Source: a virus
Lineage: Duplodnaviria > Caudoviricetes
Direction: 5' to 3' (one strand)
Length of the DNA: 64,000 nt
IMG/VR virus record: IMGVR_UViG_3300029305_003192
The position numbers were made by a program, and so were the translations under genes. Below, piece by piece: positions 49,068 to 56,844 of this stretch (within the stretch, counting starts at the first letter, position 1; each line of letters begins with the position of its first letter). The notes under the pieces are model-generated. The model worked only from the letters and a program-made list of their open reading frames with translations. It was not told the DNA's origin and did not search any database.

Positions 49068-51149
49068 ATGATTACTAAAGATTTAGTCAATATTGGTAAT
49101 GCCAGAATTACTGGTAAAGTGTTTGCCTCTAAATTTATTGGTACCTTCAACGGTACAGCGGATTCCGCTGCTGCACTTACTACGAATGCGGGTACGGCAA
49201 CGAAACCAGTCTATTTTTCTAATGGTAAACCAGTTGCGACAACTTATGCTTTACAGCTCATGACAGCAGCCTCAGCAAGTGCTGCCGGTGCGGCTGGTCT
49301 TGTACCTTCAGCTGGAGCAGGAGCTAATAAAAAGTTTCTCAGGGGTGATGCTACATGGGCATCTATCGCAGGTAATGCTTATGCTACATGCACTACAGCG
49401 GCAGCTACTGCTGCTAAAGTAGCGACGATTTCTGGTAGTGTAAATTGGGAACTTGTTACAGGCGCACAGGTAACTGTATTCTTCAGTTATACTAACAGTG
49501 CACAGAACCCGACCCTTAACGTCAATGGCACCGGTGCAAAACCCATCAAATTAGGTTCAACCACCATTGCCACAACCCATCTGTCATATGCTGCGTATGC
49601 TAACCGTGCTATCAACTTTATCTACGATGGTAGCGCATATCAGTTTATTGGTTGGTCTACGGATACTAACACAACATATTCAGCAGCTACGTCTACAGCG
49701 GCTGGTCTTATGAGTGCCGCAGATAAAAGTAAGCTTGATGGTATTCAGGCATCTGCAGATGCTGTATCATTCACACAATCACTTACCAGTGGTACTAAAA
49801 TAGGTTCAATCAGTATTAATGGTGGCCCTACTGACATTTTTGCACCGACTACAAAGCTTATTGCAGGTGCATCTGCTACTGCTACTGCAAATGCGGCGGC
49901 TTCTAACGGAAGTGCTTTTCTCAACGTTATTGAGAATGGTACTGTTAGGAGTAGTCATAAGATTGTAGGTAGTGGTGGTACGACCGTAACTACAGATGCT
50001 AATGGCGTAATCACTATTAAGTCAACCGATAATAATACCACATACACTCTCAGCAGTTTTGGTATTACTGCCACTGCGGCTGAGCTTAACATTCTTGATG
50101 GTGTTACTGTAACTGCAGCAAAGATTAACTACCTGACAGATGTTACATCCAATATCCAGGCACAGCTTAATGGCAAGGCTGCATCATCACATGGCACTCA
50201 TGTAACATATGCGACAGCAGTTCCATTGGTTGCTGGTACAGCAGCAGTCGGTACAGCAGCGAATGTTGCAAGAGGTGACCACGTTCATCCGGCACAGACT
50301 ACTATTAGTGGTAATGCTGGCAGTGCAACTAAACTTGCTACCGCAAGAACTATTGATGGTGTAAGCTTTAACGGTTCCGCAGCGATTACGCACTTCGGTA
50401 CATGTGATACAGCGGCCGGAACTGCCGCAAAGACTGTAGCACTGACGGGATTCTCATTAGTAACCGGTGCTAGGGTATTTGTAAAGTTCACATATGCTAA
50501 TACGGCAGCTAATCCAACGCTGAATGTTAATTCTACCGGAGCCAAGGCTATTATATATAGAGGCTCAGCTATCAGTGCGGCATATCTTAGAGCAAACGGT
50601 ACTTATGAATTCCTGTATGATGGTACTAACTGGAATTTTGTTGGTGATTTAAACGTGGATACTAACACCACGTATACAAATGCATCTCTCGGCCAGGGAT
50701 TCGGTACATGTGATACAGCGGCCGGAACTGCCGCAAAGACTGTAGCACTGACAAACTATGCACTTACTACTGGTGGTATAGTTTCCGTAAAATTCACATA
50801 TGCTGTACCCGCAAATGCCACGATGAATATTAACAGTAAGGGTGCGAAGTCGATTTTTTATAAGGGTGTGTCAATAACCGCAGGAGTCATTAATGCGGGG
50901 GACATCGCAACCTTCATATATGATGGTACTCAATATCATCTGATTTCGCTCGACAGTGGGGGCAGTGGTTCATCTTCCGGTGATTATATACCAACTACTG
51001 GTGGTACTGTAACCGGCAATGTTCAACAGTCAGGTGCTACTACTGACTACACGACTTATAAATTCAGAAATATTGCCGTAGGTACATCTGCTACACCAAC
51101 TTCAAATGCTACTTATGGTGTATCTGGATCTATCTATATTTATATCTAA
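49068..51149 (+). CDS. Ala/Thr/Gly-rich tail fibre protein
   Basis: Three TC.TAA.TAAK.V...V.F.Y.N...NPTLNVN.TGAK.I repeats; ATKLATARTI.GVSF.GSA. Confidence 0.82.
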   Translation: MITKDLVNIGNARITGKVFASKFIGTFNGTADSAAALTTNAGTATKPVYFSNGKPVATTYALQLMTAASASAAGAAGLVPSAGAGANKKFLRGDATWASIAGNAYATCTTAAATAAKVATISGSVNWELVTGAQVTVFFSYTNSAQNPTLNVNGTGAKPIKLGSTTIATTHLSYAAYANRAINFIYDGSAYQFIGWSTDTNTTYSAATSTAAGLMSAADKSKLDGIQASADAVSFTQSLTSGTKIGSISINGGPTDIFAPTTKLIAGASATATANAAASNGSAFLNVIENGTVRSSHKIVGSGGTTVTTDANGVITIKSTDNNTTYTLSSFGITATAAELNILDGVTVTAAKINYLTDVTSNIQAQLNGKAASSHGTHVTYATAVPLVAGTAAVGTAANVARGDHVHPAQTTISGNAGSATKLATARTIDGVSFNGSAAITHFGTCDTAAGTAAKTVALTGFSLVTGARVFVKFTYANTAANPTLNVNSTGAKAIIYRGSAISAAYLRANGTYEFLYDGTNWNFVGDLNVDTNTTYTNASLGQGFGTCDTAAGTAAKTVALTNYALTTGGIVSVKFTYAVPANATMNINSKGAKSIFYKGVSITAGVINAGDIATFIYDGTQYHLISLDSGGSGSSSGDYIPTTGGTVTGNVQQSGATTDYTTYKFRNIAVGTSATPTSNATYGVSGSIYIYI
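50394..50752 (+). repeat. 53-bp exact direct repeat within a fibre gene (50394-50446 and 50700-50752)
   Basis: TTCGGTACATGTGATACAGCGGCCGGAACTGCCGCAAAGACTGTAGCACTGAC occurs twice. Confidence 0.9.
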
Positions 51150-51208
51150 ATAATAGAAACGGATTTCTTGGGATATTTAAATAATACAAATGAAAGGAGG
51201 AATAACAT

Positions 51209-52063
51209 ATGGCTTGTGGAGGAGGGTCTTCATCTTCCGGTTGTACCGGTGCTTGTTCTTCTGATTGCTACTCATGTACCGGGTCATGTTTCGGATGTGT
51301 AGGAACGTGTGAGAAAGGTTGTCAAGGCGGATGTGGTGGTACATCATGTACGGGATGTACTGGATCTTGTTCGGGTACATGTAATAACACATCCAGTGGT
51401 TCTTCAGGATGTTCAGGCTGTACGGGATGTACTGGATGCTCAACGTCATGTGCAACCGGTTGCGCTTCATATACTTCGTGCTCATGTTCGGGATGTTCCG
51501 GTACATGCAGTGGAACTGCATCTGGCAGTACGGCTACACCTACCAGTTGCTCTGGTACCTGCACCACCACATGCTATTCTGCATGTACTGGTGGTTGTGG
51601 CACCACTAATACCGGGGGCGTATTATTTAAGATAAATAAAAACGGATCATGGTCTACTACAACATCAGGTCTTTGTGCAAACTGCACGGCATCGTGTTCC
51701 AGCGGGTGTACCGGTTGTTCTGGCGCATGTTTAGGCTGTACCAATACATGCAGTTCTGGCTGTACCGCAACATGCGGGGGTTATTGTAGTTCTGCATGTG
51801 GTAGATCGTGTATTGCTACTTCAGGAGGCACGTCTAGTGAAGGTTGTACAACATCGTCATGTATGAGCGCATGTACTGGTTGTGCTGGAAATTGTACCGG
51901 AGGATGTAGCAATAACTGCATCAAAGGATGTTCGAGCACATGTACCGGTGGACTTGGCGGATCCAATCTGGCCGCATCGTTGAAAGTTAATAAGGGCGGT
52001 ACGTGGACCAAGGCATCTGCTATCAGTATAAATCGTAATGGCACATGGTCCAATAAATCATAA
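51209..52063 (+). CDS. Cys-rich CxxxC/CxxC-repeat protein with tail-tip-like beta motifs
   Basis: GAAAGGAGG RBS; dozens of Cys in C-T/S-G-x-C periodicity; FKINKNGSW and LKVNKGGTW..INRNGTW. Confidence 0.8.
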   Translation: MACGGGSSSSGCTGACSSDCYSCTGSCFGCVGTCEKGCQGGCGGTSCTGCTGSCSGTCNNTSSGSSGCSGCTGCTGCSTSCATGCASYTSCSCSGCSGTCSGTASGSTATPTSCSGTCTTTCYSACTGGCGTTNTGGVLFKINKNGSWSTTTSGLCANCTASCSSGCTGCSGACLGCTNTCSSGCTATCGGYCSSACGRSCIATSGGTSSEGCTTSSCMSACTGCAGNCTGGCSNNCIKGCSSTCTGGLGGSNLAASLKVNKGGTWTKASAISINRNGTWSNKS

Positions 52064-52080: not shown

Positions 52081-52899
52081 ATGCTTTCATATAATGTATC
52101 ATTCAAGGGGTTTGACCCTATCGACGTAATTACCGTTTTTAATAACGGCGTAGAAGTGAGCGTAAGCACACAGGATACTATCGCAACTGCGGAAAGAAAT
52201 TGTCTCGAATTTCATTTTGCTCAGGGAGTCGATAAACTCAAAGTTCTCGAAATTTCCGAGACCGATTCAGCTCTCTCAGAAATCACTATTTCCACACCAT
52301 CTGGTGAAATATATGTGCATCTCAACTACAACATCATGACAAAGTGTGCATATGAAAACTATAATGGTGAAGGATATAGATGGATTCTTAAGCTTCACCA
52401 GCTTAATGAAACTGATATCCAGCTTAGAAAGATTGCTGGTAAGGCTGTGAATGACAGAGATGTCCTGACACTTGATGAGTATAAGGTATATAAGGTCGAT
52501 GAGTCCAAGACACTCCTCGCACTCTGGCTTGCAGCTAATCCGATCCTCTTTACAGACGGTAAGTATTATTCCGTTACTGAAGAGAAGCAGGCACTTCTTA
52601 ACAGTAACCTTGCTTCCTACGAAAGAGCTACTGCTGCTGAAGTTCAGTACCCACTTAAGTGGAACGCGTCTGGAGAGGAATGTGTTGCATGGGAATATGA
52701 AAAACTTCTCGAACTTTCTCTTGCAATTGCGGCATATGTTGCTGAACGCGTGAGTGTACAGCAGGCATATGAAATTGCGGTATATGCTGCTGAAGATAAG
52801 ATGAGTATCGATAACATGGTTCTCGATTATGATCTCGAAACAACAGCTACAGAAGTAGATACCGAAACAGAGACTGAAACTTCATCCGAAGCTGAATAA
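52081..52899 (+). CDS. tail fibre assembly/chaperone-like protein (DUF4376-like C-terminus)
   Basis: YYSVTEEKQ..LKWNASGEECVAW..LLEL..I..YV. Confidence 0.6.
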   Translation: MLSYNVSFKGFDPIDVITVFNNGVEVSVSTQDTIATAERNCLEFHFAQGVDKLKVLEISETDSALSEITISTPSGEIYVHLNYNIMTKCAYENYNGEGYRWILKLHQLNETDIQLRKIAGKAVNDRDVLTLDEYKVYKVDESKTLLALWLAANPILFTDGKYYSVTEEKQALLNSNLASYERATAAEVQYPLKWNASGEECVAWEYEKLLELSLAIAAYVAERVSVQQAYEIAVYAAEDKMSIDNMVLDYDLETTATEVDTETETETSSEAE

Positions 52900-52963
52900 T
52901 TTAAGTAATTAACCCTACCGGGACAATCCGGTAGGGTTAATATTTTCAATAGGAGGTTTAACG

Positions 52964-54241
52964 ATGACAAGAAAAGAATTCGCAGAGTCCATCATGATTG
53001 GACATAATATCGGCAACGCTCTTGAGTGTATCGAGCCATACCGATATAATAACACTGTTAAATCATTCAACGTTGAGCGAGAGGTTAATGATATCAATGG
53101 ATATCATGACTTCAGAATATCAGTGCAGCTGGATGATGATAAGTATGAACTTCATTATTCATATGAAGAAATATGGTCAAATACGCCCATTACAACTGAA
53201 TATTTGGCAAAGCTTAAAAGTTTTGGAATACAGGCGGTACGTCTCCCGTTTAATCTGATAGGCCATATTATAGATCCTACTAATCATACGGTTGATCCTC
53301 TTTGGCTTAAGAGAATTCGTGAGGTTGTCGAAATGTGTATTGATAATGGTCTTAAGTGTATACTGAATATGCACACTGACTATGCAGCAGCATGTAAGAC
53401 ACCTTCACTTTTATCAATTATTGATACTACCAGGGACCCATATACTGATACAATGGGACGGTTAATGTCCGTTTGGGCACAATTGACAGAGTATCTCAAT
53501 GATATATCGGTAGAAGATTTAGCATTTGAACTCACTAACGAGTTTCAGCTGACCGATATCGAAAATAGGACGGATGCTGATACTCTGGCATCATATGCTT
53601 CAAATCTTTATAGATATCTTTTCACATCTATTCGTAATGTAGGTGGTAATGCTGCTGAAAGATTTCTACTTATTGGCGGTTATCGTAATGATATATGGTA
53701 TTCGATATCTACATTCATAGATTTAATTAATACTGAGCTGGACGATAAGTGCTTGCTCACAACCTGTTATTATACTCCATGGCAATTTACCGTCGGCGAC
53801 AGAGTGGAATGGGAGTACTCTGGTGACACTAAGGTCGAAATGGATAAACACTATCAGTACATTCTCGATACCATCAACTCTACCGAAATACCATTCGTTA
53901 TTACTGAATATGGTGCGGGATTACCATCCAAGAACCATTTCGATTCGGTGAATTACACATATCATAACATGAAATGGGCATATGATAATAGTATACCAGC
54001 GTTCGTATGGGACCCTGGTTATATTCTACATCGCAACACTCTCGAATACGGTATCCCGTTCTGGGAAGATATGGTACGTTCGGTTATTAACGGTACTGAT
54101 TATGATATTACATCGGCATATGATACGTATAAAGATAGTATCACATTCGACAGATGTACTGAACAGACGCTTTTGACATATATGGATATATCACAGCTTG
54201 ATAATCCTGCAAATATTAAGAAATATGCATCACAGTTCTAA
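52964..54241 (+). CDS. glycoside hydrolase family 5 (cellulase superfamily), copy 1
   Basis: GHNIGNALE, AVRLP, ILNMH, FELTNEF (acid/base), YYTPWQF, ITEYG (nucleophile), FVWD. Confidence 0.88.
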   Translation: MTRKEFAESIMIGHNIGNALECIEPYRYNNTVKSFNVEREVNDINGYHDFRISVQLDDDKYELHYSYEEIWSNTPITTEYLAKLKSFGIQAVRLPFNLIGHIIDPTNHTVDPLWLKRIREVVEMCIDNGLKCILNMHTDYAAACKTPSLLSIIDTTRDPYTDTMGRLMSVWAQLTEYLNDISVEDLAFELTNEFQLTDIENRTDADTLASYASNLYRYLFTSIRNVGGNAAERFLLIGGYRNDIWYSISTFIDLINTELDDKCLLTTCYYTPWQFTVGDRVEWEYSGDTKVEMDKHYQYILDTINSTEIPFVITEYGAGLPSKNHFDSVNYTYHNMKWAYDNSIPAFVWDPGYILHRNTLEYGIPFWEDMVRSVINGTDYDITSAYDTYKDSITFDRCTEQTLLTYMDISQLDNPANIKKYASQF

Positions 54242-54249
54242 TAGGAGGC

Positions 54250-55560
54250 ATGATACTAATGACTAGACGAGAATTTGCAGAAAGTATTCGTATTGGCCAC
54301 AATCTTGGCAATGCACTTGAATGCATTGAGCCTGTGTGTAATAACGGGCTTGCCGTTACTGTTGATAGAGAAGTGACCGATATTAACGGATACCATGACC
54401 ACAGAATCATCATTAAATATCCTGATGGCTCATATAGCTATTACTACAGCTTCGAAGAAATTTGGTCGAATGTACCAATTACTCAGGAATGGTTTAATAT
54501 CTTAAAATCTATCGGCGTGCAGGCTATTCGTGTTCCTATGAATCTTTCGGGGCATCTTATAGATGGCATTAATCATACTATTGACCCCCTCTGGCTTAAA
54601 AGAATCCGTGAAGTAATCAACATGTGTATCTCTGCAGGATTAAAATGCGTCCTGACACTTCATACTGATTTCGTCATTATGTACAGAGTGGGAAGTTATC
54701 GTTCACTCATTGATACTACAAGAGACCCGTCCACGGATGGTGTTGGTAGACTGATGAGTGCATGGAAGCAGATGGCTGAATATGTCAATGATATATCAGT
54801 AGAGGACCTGGCATTTGAACTTACTAACGAATTCAGATTATATGATATCGATGGAAATGAACTTGCCACATATAACGAGGATGCTACTGATGAAGAAAAG
54901 GCAACGTATGCTGCCAGACTGAATAAGCATTTATTCGATGCTATCCGTAGCGTCGGTGGTAATGCTGCTGAAAGATTCTTACTTATTGGCGGATATGGTA
55001 ATAACCCGGATACATGCCCCGATATTCTCATCAACTCAATCAAAAATGATATGGATGATAAGTGTATCATAACAGCGTGTTATTATACACCGTGGGAGTT
55101 TACCGTATCAAGCATTAATACTACCTGGGAATATTGTAAGCGTATGAGGGATATTATGGATAATCATTTCAATCGTCTGCTTGCAGTAAGTAATGATAAC
55201 GACATCCCATTGGTAATTACCGAGTTCGGTATTGGTTGTGATGAGGGTGCTATGGCTAAGAAGGAGAAGTTCTCGTTCTGCAGTTATATCTTCACAGTAA
55301 TGAATATGATGAAGGAGCACAATGTTCCTGCATTTATTTGGGATCCTGGATATATTCTCAGAAGGGATAGTATGACCTTCGGATTACCATTCTACCCATC
55401 ATTGGTTGAGAGTGTTGCTAATGGTACACCTTTCGATCCATACAATGCATATCTGGAGACAATTGACAATTATAATATCGAAAGATTAACATATCGTGAC
55501 GAATTAACCCTCGAGGACATTCAGGCTCTCGATAATCTCCAAAACTCCGAGGAGGTGTAA
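54250..55560 (+). CDS. glycoside hydrolase family 5, copy 2
   Basis: GHNLGNALE, AIRVP, FELTNEF, YYTPWEF, ITEFG, FIWD. Confidence 0.88.
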   Translation: MILMTRREFAESIRIGHNLGNALECIEPVCNNGLAVTVDREVTDINGYHDHRIIIKYPDGSYSYYYSFEEIWSNVPITQEWFNILKSIGVQAIRVPMNLSGHLIDGINHTIDPLWLKRIREVINMCISAGLKCVLTLHTDFVIMYRVGSYRSLIDTTRDPSTDGVGRLMSAWKQMAEYVNDISVEDLAFELTNEFRLYDIDGNELATYNEDATDEEKATYAARLNKHLFDAIRSVGGNAAERFLLIGGYGNNPDTCPDILINSIKNDMDDKCIITACYYTPWEFTVSSINTTWEYCKRMRDIMDNHFNRLLAVSNDNDIPLVITEFGIGCDEGAMAKKEKFSFCSYIFTVMNMMKEHNVPAFIWDPGYILRRDSMTFGLPFYPSLVESVANGTPFDPYNAYLETIDNYNIERLTYRDELTLEDIQALDNLQNSEEV

Positions 55561-55563
55561 TGT

Positions 55564-56844
55564 ATGACCAGGGAACAATTCGCAGAGAGAATCCGCATAG
55601 GGCATAACCTTGGTAATGCCCTTGAATGCATCGAACCTGTATATGATTCGGCCGCTACTATAAAGATCGACAGAGCAGTTACCGACAAGAATGGCTATCA
55701 TGACCACCGTATAATCATTCAGTATCCGGATGGTACATATAGCTATTTCTACAATTTTGACGAGATATGGTCAAATGCACCAGTAACCGAGGATTTCTTT
55801 AAAATCCTGGCAGACATCGGGGTTCAGTTAGTGAGAATTCCAATGAATCTATCTGGTCACATAATCGATGATAATAACACCGTGGATCCTTTATGGCTTA
55901 AGAAGATACGGTCCGTCGTCGAGATGTGTATTAATAACGATATGGTAGCTAATCTTTGTCTGCATACAGACTTCGTAAAATATTACAGAGAAACTCAGTT
56001 CGAATCGCTATTTGATCTTCAAAATGATCCAAATGATGATGCTGTCGGAGTTCTTATGTCAGTATGGAAGCAGATGGCTGAATATGTCAATGATATCCCA
56101 GTAGACGTATTGTGCTTCGAGCTGACCAATGAATTCCGAATTCATGATATGGATGATGATTTAAGCCATCCAAATGGTAGAGTATTAACTTTCCAGGAGA
56201 AGGCTATGTATGCTGCACGTTTAAATAAGTACCTGTTTGATGCAGTACGCAGCGTCGGTGGAAATGCGGCTAAAAGATTCTTATTAATTGAAAACTATGC
56301 TAACTGTGCTGATATGGATAAGCAGACATATATAGAGAGTTTCAAGAACGATTTTGATTCCAGATGTCTTATGACAGCATGTTATTATTGCCCGTGGGAA
56401 TTCACGGTGTGCGATAGGCACAACACGTGGGAGTTAAATTCTGCAATAAAACCTATCATGGAACGAGAAATGAATAGACTCAAATATATCCGTGAGGAAT
56501 CAGGAGTCCCACTCGTCATTACAGAATATGGCGTCGGTTGCGATAACTCTGGTATGGAGCATAAAGACAAATTCTCAATATGCAGGTACTTGTATACCGT
56601 AATGAAGATGATGAAAAATGAAGGATTTCCTGCATTTATTTGGGATCCTGGATATATCATCAAGCGTATCGATTATCATTACGGTATCCCGTTCTGGAGA
56701 GAAATGCTGAGGGGTATATACTTCGGAGAACCTTTCGATCTCTACGAATCGTTTACAGAACACTCCGAGCATTTACTCTTTACACGACATTATTATGGCG
56801 TCTCCAGAACTGCTGAAGATATCCGAGCACTCGACGATATATAA
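55564..56844 (+). CDS. glycoside hydrolase family 5, copy 3
   Basis: GHNLGNALE, VRIP, FELTNEF, YYCPWEF, ITEYG, FIWD. Confidence 0.88.
   Translation: MTREQFAERIRIGHNLGNALECIEPVYDSAATIKIDRAVTDKNGYHDHRIIIQYPDGTYSYFYNFDEIWSNAPVTEDFFKILADIGVQLVRIPMNLSGHIIDDNNTVDPLWLKKIRSVVEMCINNDMVANLCLHTDFVKYYRETQFESLFDLQNDPNDDAVGVLMSVWKQMAEYVNDIPVDVLCFELTNEFRIHDMDDDLSHPNGRVLTFQEKAMYAARLNKYLFDAVRSVGGNAAKRFLLIENYANCADMDKQTYIESFKNDFDSRCLMTACYYCPWEFTVCDRHNTWELNSAIKPIMEREMNRLKYIREESGVPLVITEYGVGCDNSGMEHKDKFSICRYLYTVMKMMKNEGFPAFIWDPGYIIKRIDYHYGIPFWREMLRGIYFGEPFDLYESFTEHSEHLLFTRHYYGVSRTAEDIRALDDI

Follow-up and report, generated by a model that had tools for sequence, protein, structure and literature searches.

Introduction

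Thioether cross-linking by radical S-adenosylmethionine (SAM) enzymes is known for small peptides; among cellular proteins, to our knowledge, it has been demonstrated for CrpA only, and that very recently. One of the peptide enzymes, PapB, makes repeated Cys-to-acceptor thioethers within short C-x3-acceptor windows. In the CrpA work, published in 2026, the SPASM enzyme CrpC of Methanococcus voltae (family TIGR04463) was found to install ranthionine links on CrpA, a Cys-rich protein of 28.8 kDa (PMC13692751). CrpA combines a 17-residue repeat bearing C-x-x-Q/D acceptor motifs with a leader-like N-terminus of 47 amino acids (aa), and a companion protein raises the yield (PMC13692751). CrpA and CrpC therefore provide a precedent for protein-sized substrates of such enzymes. 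A second radical SAM/SPASM family, TIGR04115, carries the name 'radical SAM peptide maturase, CXXX-repeat target family'; our literature search found no experimental study on TIGR04115 enzymes, CXXX-repeat maturases or radical-SAM-modified phage fibres. Here we analyse P0001, a 284-aa protein with CXXX repeats that is encoded at positions 51209 to 52063 of a 64,000-nucleotide stretch of a Caudoviricetes virus (IMG/VR record IMGVR_UViG_3300029305_003192). This whole stretch is called the window; it is the minus strand of G000:69940-133939, where G000 denotes the IMG/VR record of 141,310 bp, 59% complete according to CheckV.

Why would a phage encode, among its tail fibre genes, a protein of which almost every fifth residue is a cysteine? 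We propose that P0001 is a leaderless, internally duplicated CXXX target, modified in trans by a radical SAM maturase and built into the virion as a fibre-associated part, and we give this reading a probability of about one half.

Results

P0001 is a duplicated cysteine ladder

The P0001 gene is an open frame preceded by a consensus Shine-Dalgarno sequence, AAAGGAGG, which is strong and ideally spaced. Its elements, in window positions, are:

51193..51200, plus strand: ribosome-binding site AAAGGAGG, read directly from the sequence, 8 nt 5' of the P0001 ATG
51209..52063, plus strand: coding sequence of P0001, 284-aa CXXX-repeat ('cysteine ladder') protein, without internal stop
51215..51598, plus strand: Cys array 1, C3-C130, 29 Cys, terminal signature ...CTTTCYSAC..., from Cys positions and the grammar x1 S/T, x2 G, x3 T/G/A/S
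51626..51652, plus strand: motif 1, FKINKNGSW, aa 140-148, which separates both arrays and aligns with motif 2 in the internal duplication
51674..51943, plus strand: Cys array 2, C156-C245, 22 Cys, from Cys positions and the same grammar
51980..52006, plus strand: motif 2, LKVNKGGTW, aa 258-266, from the sequence and from strands 259-262 and 265-268 of the AlphaFold2 (AF2) model
52022..52048, plus strand: motif 3, ISINRNGTW, aa 272-280, from the sequence

Five residues account for 81% of the protein (G 20%, S 20%, C 18% or 51 Cys, T 16% and A 7%). The 50 gaps between successive cysteines are dominated by spacings of four (30/50) and three residues (11/50); CC does not occur, CxC occurs once, and nine residues are aromatic. 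Gaps of three or four residues thus number 41 of 50, compared to a maximum of 23 of 50 when 51 Cys were placed at random 20,000 times. The periodicity of the cysteines far exceeds chance and, like the gene itself, is established directly. A previous annotation made without database searches, here called the sequence-only reading, had described a 284-aa protein composed mostly of C, S, G, T and A in CxxxC/CxxC periodicity, with two blocks that each carry a motif, and the open reading frame (ORF), the composition and the gap counts all bear this out.

Each array is followed by a K-x-N-K-x-G-x-W motif (motifs 1 and 2), and the two halves of P0001 represent a tandem duplication of one module, consisting of a Cys array, TGG-x-G-x-x-N and phi-K-phi-N-K-x-G-x-W. 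Aligned with each other, the halves score 269, compared to 148±13 for shuffles; the tails alone score 94 against 40±7.5. A blastn search with the gene found no internal DNA copy and no DNA-level paralogue in the genome, and we reject a recent duplication. The sequence-only reading had likened these motifs to those at fibre tips, which could not be confirmed here: neither the rest of the genome nor any of 166 fetched loci contains K-x-N-K-x-G-x-W. A possible likeness to the LNVNGTGAK repeat of the 693-aa fibre-like protein encoded upstream was judged too weak by eye and rejected. P0001 has neither a signal peptide nor a transmembrane segment, and its cysteines begin at residue 3 (MACGGG...), so that it is not the short peptide with leader and core expected of the precursor of a peptide made by ribosomes and modified post-translationally (RiPP). 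In the AF2 model, only the block around motif 2 reaches modest confidence (weak beta-hairpins; predicted score in the local distance difference test (pLDDT), 66).

Could this frame be an unexpressed, non-functional by-product of repeat DNA? The DNA is a low-complexity repeat with long open frames on both strands, and no divergent orthologue is known, both in favour of such an origin. However, the gene has its consensus Shine-Dalgarno sequence at ideal spacing, is tightly packed in an operon and shares the strand of its neighbours, and its grammar is position-specific at the level of the protein and not that of a DNA repeat, of which blastn detects no internal or genomic copy. Identical P0001 is found on at least 24 other contigs; the six that were compared come from six samples (one, JGI Ga0187907_10000022, is 239,607 bp long), agree at 99.94-100% DNA identity and all keep the 855-nt frame intact and identical. 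We consider a by-product scarcely credible. The phage, a giant one whose hosts are gut-type anaerobes, has a genome of about 240 kb.

A single maturase, probably split by an intein, is encoded in the same record

The sequence-only reading had stated that no radical SAM gene lies in the window, which is correct: the only one of the record is located beyond it, at G000:64172-66133. The genome-wide search for a TIGR04115-like SPASM enzyme that this reading had put forward was positive and yielded one maturase, 15.7 kb from P0001 (G000:81877-82731, minus strand) and on the opposite strand. This 653-aa ORF (G000:64172-66133, plus strand, equal to L001:14173-16134) matches TIGR04115 with 438.7 bits and an E-value of 2e-131, at a cut-off of 350. 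A TIGR04115 search of the whole record returned one match, which scored 432 bits, and all 14 control genomes stayed below the cut-off. The presence of the maturase is an observation.

The maturase closes an operon (G000:57023-66133; L001:7024-16134) that consists of six CXXX ORFs, a 215-aa helper-like ORF (L001:13487-14134) and the maturase gene. The six, which stood out by Cys content when all ORFs of the record were scanned, encode 388, 69, 333, 968, 100 and 271 aa, lie head to tail (G000:57023-63433; L001:7024-13434) and contain 10-23% Cys. The 968-aa member is a fibre-like fusion in which an array, a segment resembling the N-terminal domain of other class members, a second array and a 400-aa C-terminal domain follow each other. 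Together with P0001, the CXXX class of this phage comprises seven genes, six beside the maturase and one apart.

The CxxxCxxC motif of the maturase is interrupted: it reads CNLRCTY, then an insert of 149 aa, then C. The insert (L001:14335-14781; G000:64334-64780) starts with Cys1, contains TPNH and ends in VHN, directly before C+1. Six aligned maturase homologues lack it, and comparison with them places it precisely between CNLRCTY and the third Cys. The Pfam family Hint (cut-off 29.7) matches both the full 653-aa protein, with 35.4 bits, and the insert cut out of it, with 33.6 bits. Judged by its sequence, the insert is a Hint-type mini-intein inside the CxxxCxxC motif, and the third Cys would be the +1 extein nucleophile. 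The maturase would then be active only after the predicted splicing, CxxxCxxC being contiguous only at that stage. A search of the record with PF04055 gave no match, a false negative that arises because the intein splits the cluster motif. Among characterized families the maturase scores highest with PapB (171 bits), followed by the SCIFF maturase (100 bits) and QhpD (98 bits), all of which form thioethers; its nearest solved structure is CteB (5WGG/5WHY, E 5e-18).

Cysteine ladders and maturases go together

The maturase, used as query, retrieved 67 viral and 33 bacterial loci. A large CXXX ORF adjoins the maturase in about 60 of the 67 viral and about 30 of the 33 bacterial loci, as one to three ORFs. 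The bacterial loci belong mostly to gut Clostridia (Oscillospiraceae, Lachnospiraceae, Neglectibacter timonensis, Eubacterium pyruvativorans, Blautia wexlerae). As a negative control, 59 fibre loci without a maturase, all containing relatives of the 693-aa fibre-like protein, were inspected, and none has a CXXX ORF (0/59). Every ladder of four bacterial genomes (12.7 Mb) and of four large phage genomes is found inside a maturase locus, so that in these genomes a ladder always comes with the enzyme. This strict genomic coupling of ladder and maturase is established directly. A distal ladder copy like P0001 was found in none of the four other large phage genomes.

Smaller phages and prophages have, in this order, genes for a baseplate wedge (phrog_6), a baseplate protein (phrog_1160), a tail collar fibre (phrog_1780), the CXXX protein or proteins, a ~110-aa helper and the maturase; downstream of the latter, further fibre-like genes are followed by an endolysin. 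The CXXX-maturase cassette occupies the tail-fibre slot in these other phages. A literature search found no publication on it.

The coupling bears on the alternative that disulfides, formed spontaneously or through host oxidoreductases, stiffen P0001 as a fibre element, with no involvement of a radical SAM enzyme. Cys-rich extracellular structural proteins are usually disulfide-bonded, and the many cysteines at short, regular spacing would suit this chemistry. It would leave the strict ladder-maturase coupling unexplained, however, and the relatives of the maturase occur in gut Clostridia, strict anaerobes with a reducing cytoplasm in a reducing habitat. Radical SAM enzymes themselves require anoxia. 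A search of the record for thioredoxin-fold genes was negative (an Erv1 search had no working control). The disulfide branch of the sequence-only reading gains nothing from these two results, the lack of a thioredoxin-fold gene in the record and the strictly anaerobic relatives, and we regard it as very improbable.

A second, different pair of genes was noticed in a 229,764-bp phage record (L008:15366-17702), 5 kb downstream of its CXXX cassette. It encodes a 405-aa radical SAM protein (CNLRCTYC) and, after it, a 364-aa protein with 22% Cys and an Asp-rich CxC/CxxxC grammar (CSCNSDCADGCGSDC...).

P0001 fits the class of CXXX targets

Does P0001, at its distance from the maturase, follow the grammar of the proteins that adjoin such enzymes? 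The ratio of CxxxC to CxxC spacings is 30:11 in P0001, 239:56 in its own operon and 2001:572 in 57 maturase-adjacent proteins of other phages. Glycine occupies the second position of CxxC in 81%, 71% and 79% of cases, respectively, and the preferences for S/T at x1, G at x2 and G/T/S at x3 (in P0001 also A) are common to all three sets. We built a 17-column hidden Markov model (HMM) from 606 windows taken solely from the maturase-adjacent proteins of other phages and ran it with the null2 correction of HMMER off. P0001 scores 243 bits, compared to 64±15 (maximum 124) for composition-matched shuffles, and the operon proteins score 104-429. The sole family match of P0001 is phrog_6085 (E 2.5e-4), which bona fide targets match as well: a 265-aa protein of locus L019 with 62 bits and the 271-, 388- and 333-aa proteins of the phage's own operon with 43, 31 and 24 bits. 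The fit of P0001 to the class is in this sense observed directly.

Most members of the class begin with a conserved, helical N-terminal domain, about 120 aa long and terminating in SSCRGACTGLC (alignment A1). AF2 models this domain with a pLDDT of 79.5; a comparison with the PDB gave nothing significant (best, the N-terminal domain of TssK, E 2.6), and its matches in BFVD are confined to uncharacterized gut-phage homologues. A leaderless subclass, starting with MAC, is present beside maturases elsewhere (L019:8730-9527, L055, L012 and L067), and P0001, with its N-terminus MACGGG..., belongs to it. In L019, a 176-aa protein composed of the N-terminal domain and a short array (L019:8190-8720) is followed after 9 nt by the leaderless 265-aa ladder (MACS..., L019:8730-9527), and about 25 similar loci exist. 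The recurrence of this gene pair suggests that members with and without the N-terminal domain work together.

Relatives of P0001 itself are scarce. Nothing was returned by tblastn against GenBank phages or by a word-indexed search of 5.8 billion proteins at E <= 0.001; a related-locus search and a PDB sequence search gave no relative either. The one borderline phmmer match, P0002 (L167:3054-3635), is a bacterial protein of 193 aa in which a twin-arginine-type signal (SRREFFKK...) precedes CXXX arrays with a faint PF27846 match; the gene that follows does not encode a radical SAM enzyme. The signal suggests that some cellular members of the class may be exported.

At this point, a metal-binding array has to be weighed, that is, a metallothionein-like metal store or sensor that holds Zn, Cu, Fe or Fe-S through free thiolates, either unmodified or besides a few cross-links. 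P0001 does contain 18% Cys with many CxxC and CxxxC pairs, and the CrpA study also considers a role related to metals for its Cys-rich protein with thioether links (PMC13692751). On the other hand, CC is missing, CxC occurs a single time, nine aromatic residues are present and the length is 284 aa; no metallothionein or ferredoxin family matches even at E up to 10. The same properties argue against the metallothionein-like branch of the sequence-only reading. In addition, the ladder pattern is seen only with a TIGR04115 maturase, of which a simple metal-binding protein would have no need, and a position in a fibre operon does not suggest metal handling. We think a metal-binding array distinctly unlikely.

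P0001 lies in a fibre operon

P0001 and both neighbouring genes share one strand and are tightly packed in a unit that ends at a terminator-like hairpin. The surrounding features, in window positions, are:

49068..51149, plus strand: 693-aa fibre-like protein, ending 59 nt before P0001, from its relatives and internal repeat
52081..52899, plus strand: 272-aa DUF4376-like protein, starting 17 nt after P0001, from a weak Pfam match and an Atlas structure match
52908..52941, plus strand: terminator-like hairpin (stem of 15 bp, tail rich in T), closing the unit of fibre gene, P0001 and 272-aa gene
52964..56844, plus strand: three tandem paralogues of glycoside hydrolase family 5 (GH5, cellulase family), 425, 436 and 426 aa, Pfam PF00150 at 91-106 bits

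The unit is part of a 20-kb plus-strand block with several 'tail fiber' PHROGs, a Laminin_G_3/CBM protein and the three GH5 paralogues. These paralogues, inside a tail-fibre block, are possible virion-borne glycan depolymerases.

The sequence-only reading had placed P0001 between a tail fibre and a fibre chaperone. The first assignment holds, in that the 693-aa protein, which repeats a segment internally three times and is related to proteins of 59 phage loci, is fibre-like; its sole PHROG match is a family of unknown function. The second is only plausible. The 272-aa protein reaches 17 bits on Pfam DUF4376 (cut-off 25), and its Atlas structure matches DUF4376 clusters with template modelling (TM) scores of 0.51/0.66, some of these clusters carrying Caudo_TAP or XkdX. 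A related-locus search returned no relatives of it, and it is unrelated to the helper of the maturase operon and to the other DUF4376 gene.

Inside the 693-aa gene, a DNA repeat of about 135 nt (50394-50530 and 50700-50833, plus strand, 80.6% identity) corresponds to the threefold protein repeat ...N(V/I)N(G/S)xGAK...YDG...

The genomic position also bears on whether P0001, though of the CXXX class, might stay outside the virion and act as an assembly scaffold, as a decoy or regulator of the maturase, or as a product that is released by lysis and acts on other cells. Such a role could be reconciled with the lack of the N-terminal domain that might anchor other members, and with the nearest sequence match, P0002, a bacterial CXXX protein with a Tat-type signal, by which some members would be exported. 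P0001 itself, however, has no signal peptide or transmembrane segment and is tightly packed between the fibre-like and the DUF4376-like genes in a terminator-closed unit. In other phages the cassette lies between baseplate and lysis genes, and the 968-aa member joins two arrays to a fibre-like 400-aa C-terminal domain. A role outside the virion is unlikely in our opinion, if far from negligible.

Discussion

Weighing the evidence for a modified fibre component

The sequence-only reading had left three chemistries side by side: a structural protein cross-linked by thioethers in trans, a metallothionein-like protein and a disulfide-stiffened fibre tip. Our analysis gives strong genomic support to the first, through the maturase, the shared grammar and the profile score, and adds nothing in favour of the other two.

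Several points nevertheless weigh against P0001 as a trans-modified part of the virion. P0001 shares the genome of the maturase but is not adjacent to it, and has no ~120-aa N-terminal domain of the kind borne by most phage targets. No divergent orthologue was found, a phmmer search over 1.84 billion representatives giving only the borderline match to P0002. All copies of P0001 are from the same strain, so that their conservation is uninformative on selection and a ratio of nonsynonymous to synonymous substitution rates (dN/dS) is not computable. The searches for maturase and CXXX genes covered 141 kb of the ~240-kb genome. Structure prediction was uninformative, both for the AF2 model of the whole protein (pLDDT 38) and for the Atlas model (0.42), whose listed fold matches are meaningless. 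The repeats contain no conserved Asp, Glu or Gln acceptor as in the substrates of PapB and CrpC. A literature search found no biochemical or proteomic data on this phage or on any TIGR04115 enzyme.

Finally, P0001 matches no Pfam or NCBIfam model at E up to 10, TIGR04114 (cut-off 20 bits) included. Two of four positive controls, all of them maturase-adjacent proteins, were also missed by the curated HMMs. The missing matches, of P0001 and of these controls, are explained by the composition correction: the default null2 'bias' of HMMER removes 250-480 bits from every CXXX member, and the scores become negative or small. The HMM search of P0001 that the sequence-only reading had recommended thus came out divided, empty for Pfam and NCBIfam, positive for phrog_6085 (E 2.5e-4) and for the custom profile (243 bits). 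That the composition correction hides the CXXX class from curated models is a new demonstration. Curated HMMs such as TIGR04114 and PF27846 miss most true members through null2, and the class is consequently largely and systematically unannotated.

Proposed mechanism

How might a ladder that is encoded 15.7 kb away be modified? The maturase precursor would first excise its 149-aa intein, which would restore the CxxxCxxC motif. The mature enzyme, perhaps together with the adjacent 215-aa helper, would then act in trans on P0001. Because P0001 has no leader domain, we propose that the enzyme would recognize the repeat as such, C-[ST]-G-x / C-[ST]-G. Many intramolecular cross-links would be installed, presumably thioethers by analogy with PapB, CteB, QhpD and CrpC; candidate acceptors are Ser, Thr or Gly within the repeat unit, or else the following Cys, at the i+4 spacing that PapB uses. 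The stapled P0001 would be insensitive to redox conditions, resistant to proteases and built into or onto the tail-fibre apparatus, where the K-x-N-K-x-G-x-W hairpins may, as a guess, act as a docking element. Modification in trans, thioether chemistry, location in the virion and the docking role are inferred.

Significance

New in this phage are an orphan, leaderless and duplicated target in a separate fibre operon, the expansion of the class to seven genes and a maturase predicted to be split by an intein. Could phages of anaerobes in general use enzyme-stapled cysteine ladders as components of the apparatus with which they recognize hosts, with one maturase serving, in the present case, seven substrates by recognizing the repeat and not a leader? 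We advance this only tentatively, as a generalization that may well fail. If true, virion structural proteins would for the first time be known to undergo RiPP-type cross-linking, and virions to mature in a new way, in which thioethers are the counterpart of disulfide stiffening in the absence of oxygen. It would explain the rigidity and protease resistance of the fibres of anaerobe phages without disulfides, and would offer a large natural library of protein-sized thioether scaffolds. A modified P0001, leaderless and distant as it is, would show that the maturase recognizes the repeat itself.

Comparison with known systems

Metallothioneins are proteins of about 60 aa, rich in CxC and CC and devoid of aromatic residues. 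P0001 resembles them in being Cys-rich, with Gly, Ser and Thr between the cysteines; it differs in its 284 aa, the absence of CC, the single CxC, the nine aromatic residues and the lack of a family match.

The closest characterized relatives of the phage maturase are the enzymes of the PapB/freyrasin and CteB/SCIFF systems (171 bits and E 5e-18, respectively), although it scores far below the cut-offs of these families. Unlike P0001, their substrates are shorter than 60 aa, possess leaders and use Asp or Thr as acceptors at defined positions.

With CrpA and CrpC, the phage system has in common a SPASM radical SAM enzyme and a protein-sized, Cys-rich repeat protein, here as the putative substrate. 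The maturase families are different, the phage enzyme reaching only 42 bits on TIGR04463. P0001 has repeats of 3-4 residues with no acidic or amide acceptor and no leader, and CrpA is an archaeal, cellular protein.

The CXXX system of NCBIfam/TIGRFAMs (TIGR04115 with the targets TIGR04114/TIGR04117 and PF27846), which has been catalogued in silico, shares with our phage the maturase in the same genome, the periodicity and the residues of the repeat. In contrast to its short peptides, P0001 has 284 aa, is leaderless and is encoded at a distance of 15.7 kb on the opposite strand; it lies in a tail-fibre operon, has two arrays each with a beta-hairpin motif and remains below the thresholds of the curated HMMs.

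The CXXX-maturase cassette of other phages agrees in enzyme family, repeat grammar and fibre-module context. There, the targets adjoin the maturase and usually bear the ~120-aa N-terminal domain, whereas P0001 is an orphan without this domain, in a phage that has seven members of the class and a maturase apparently split by an intein.

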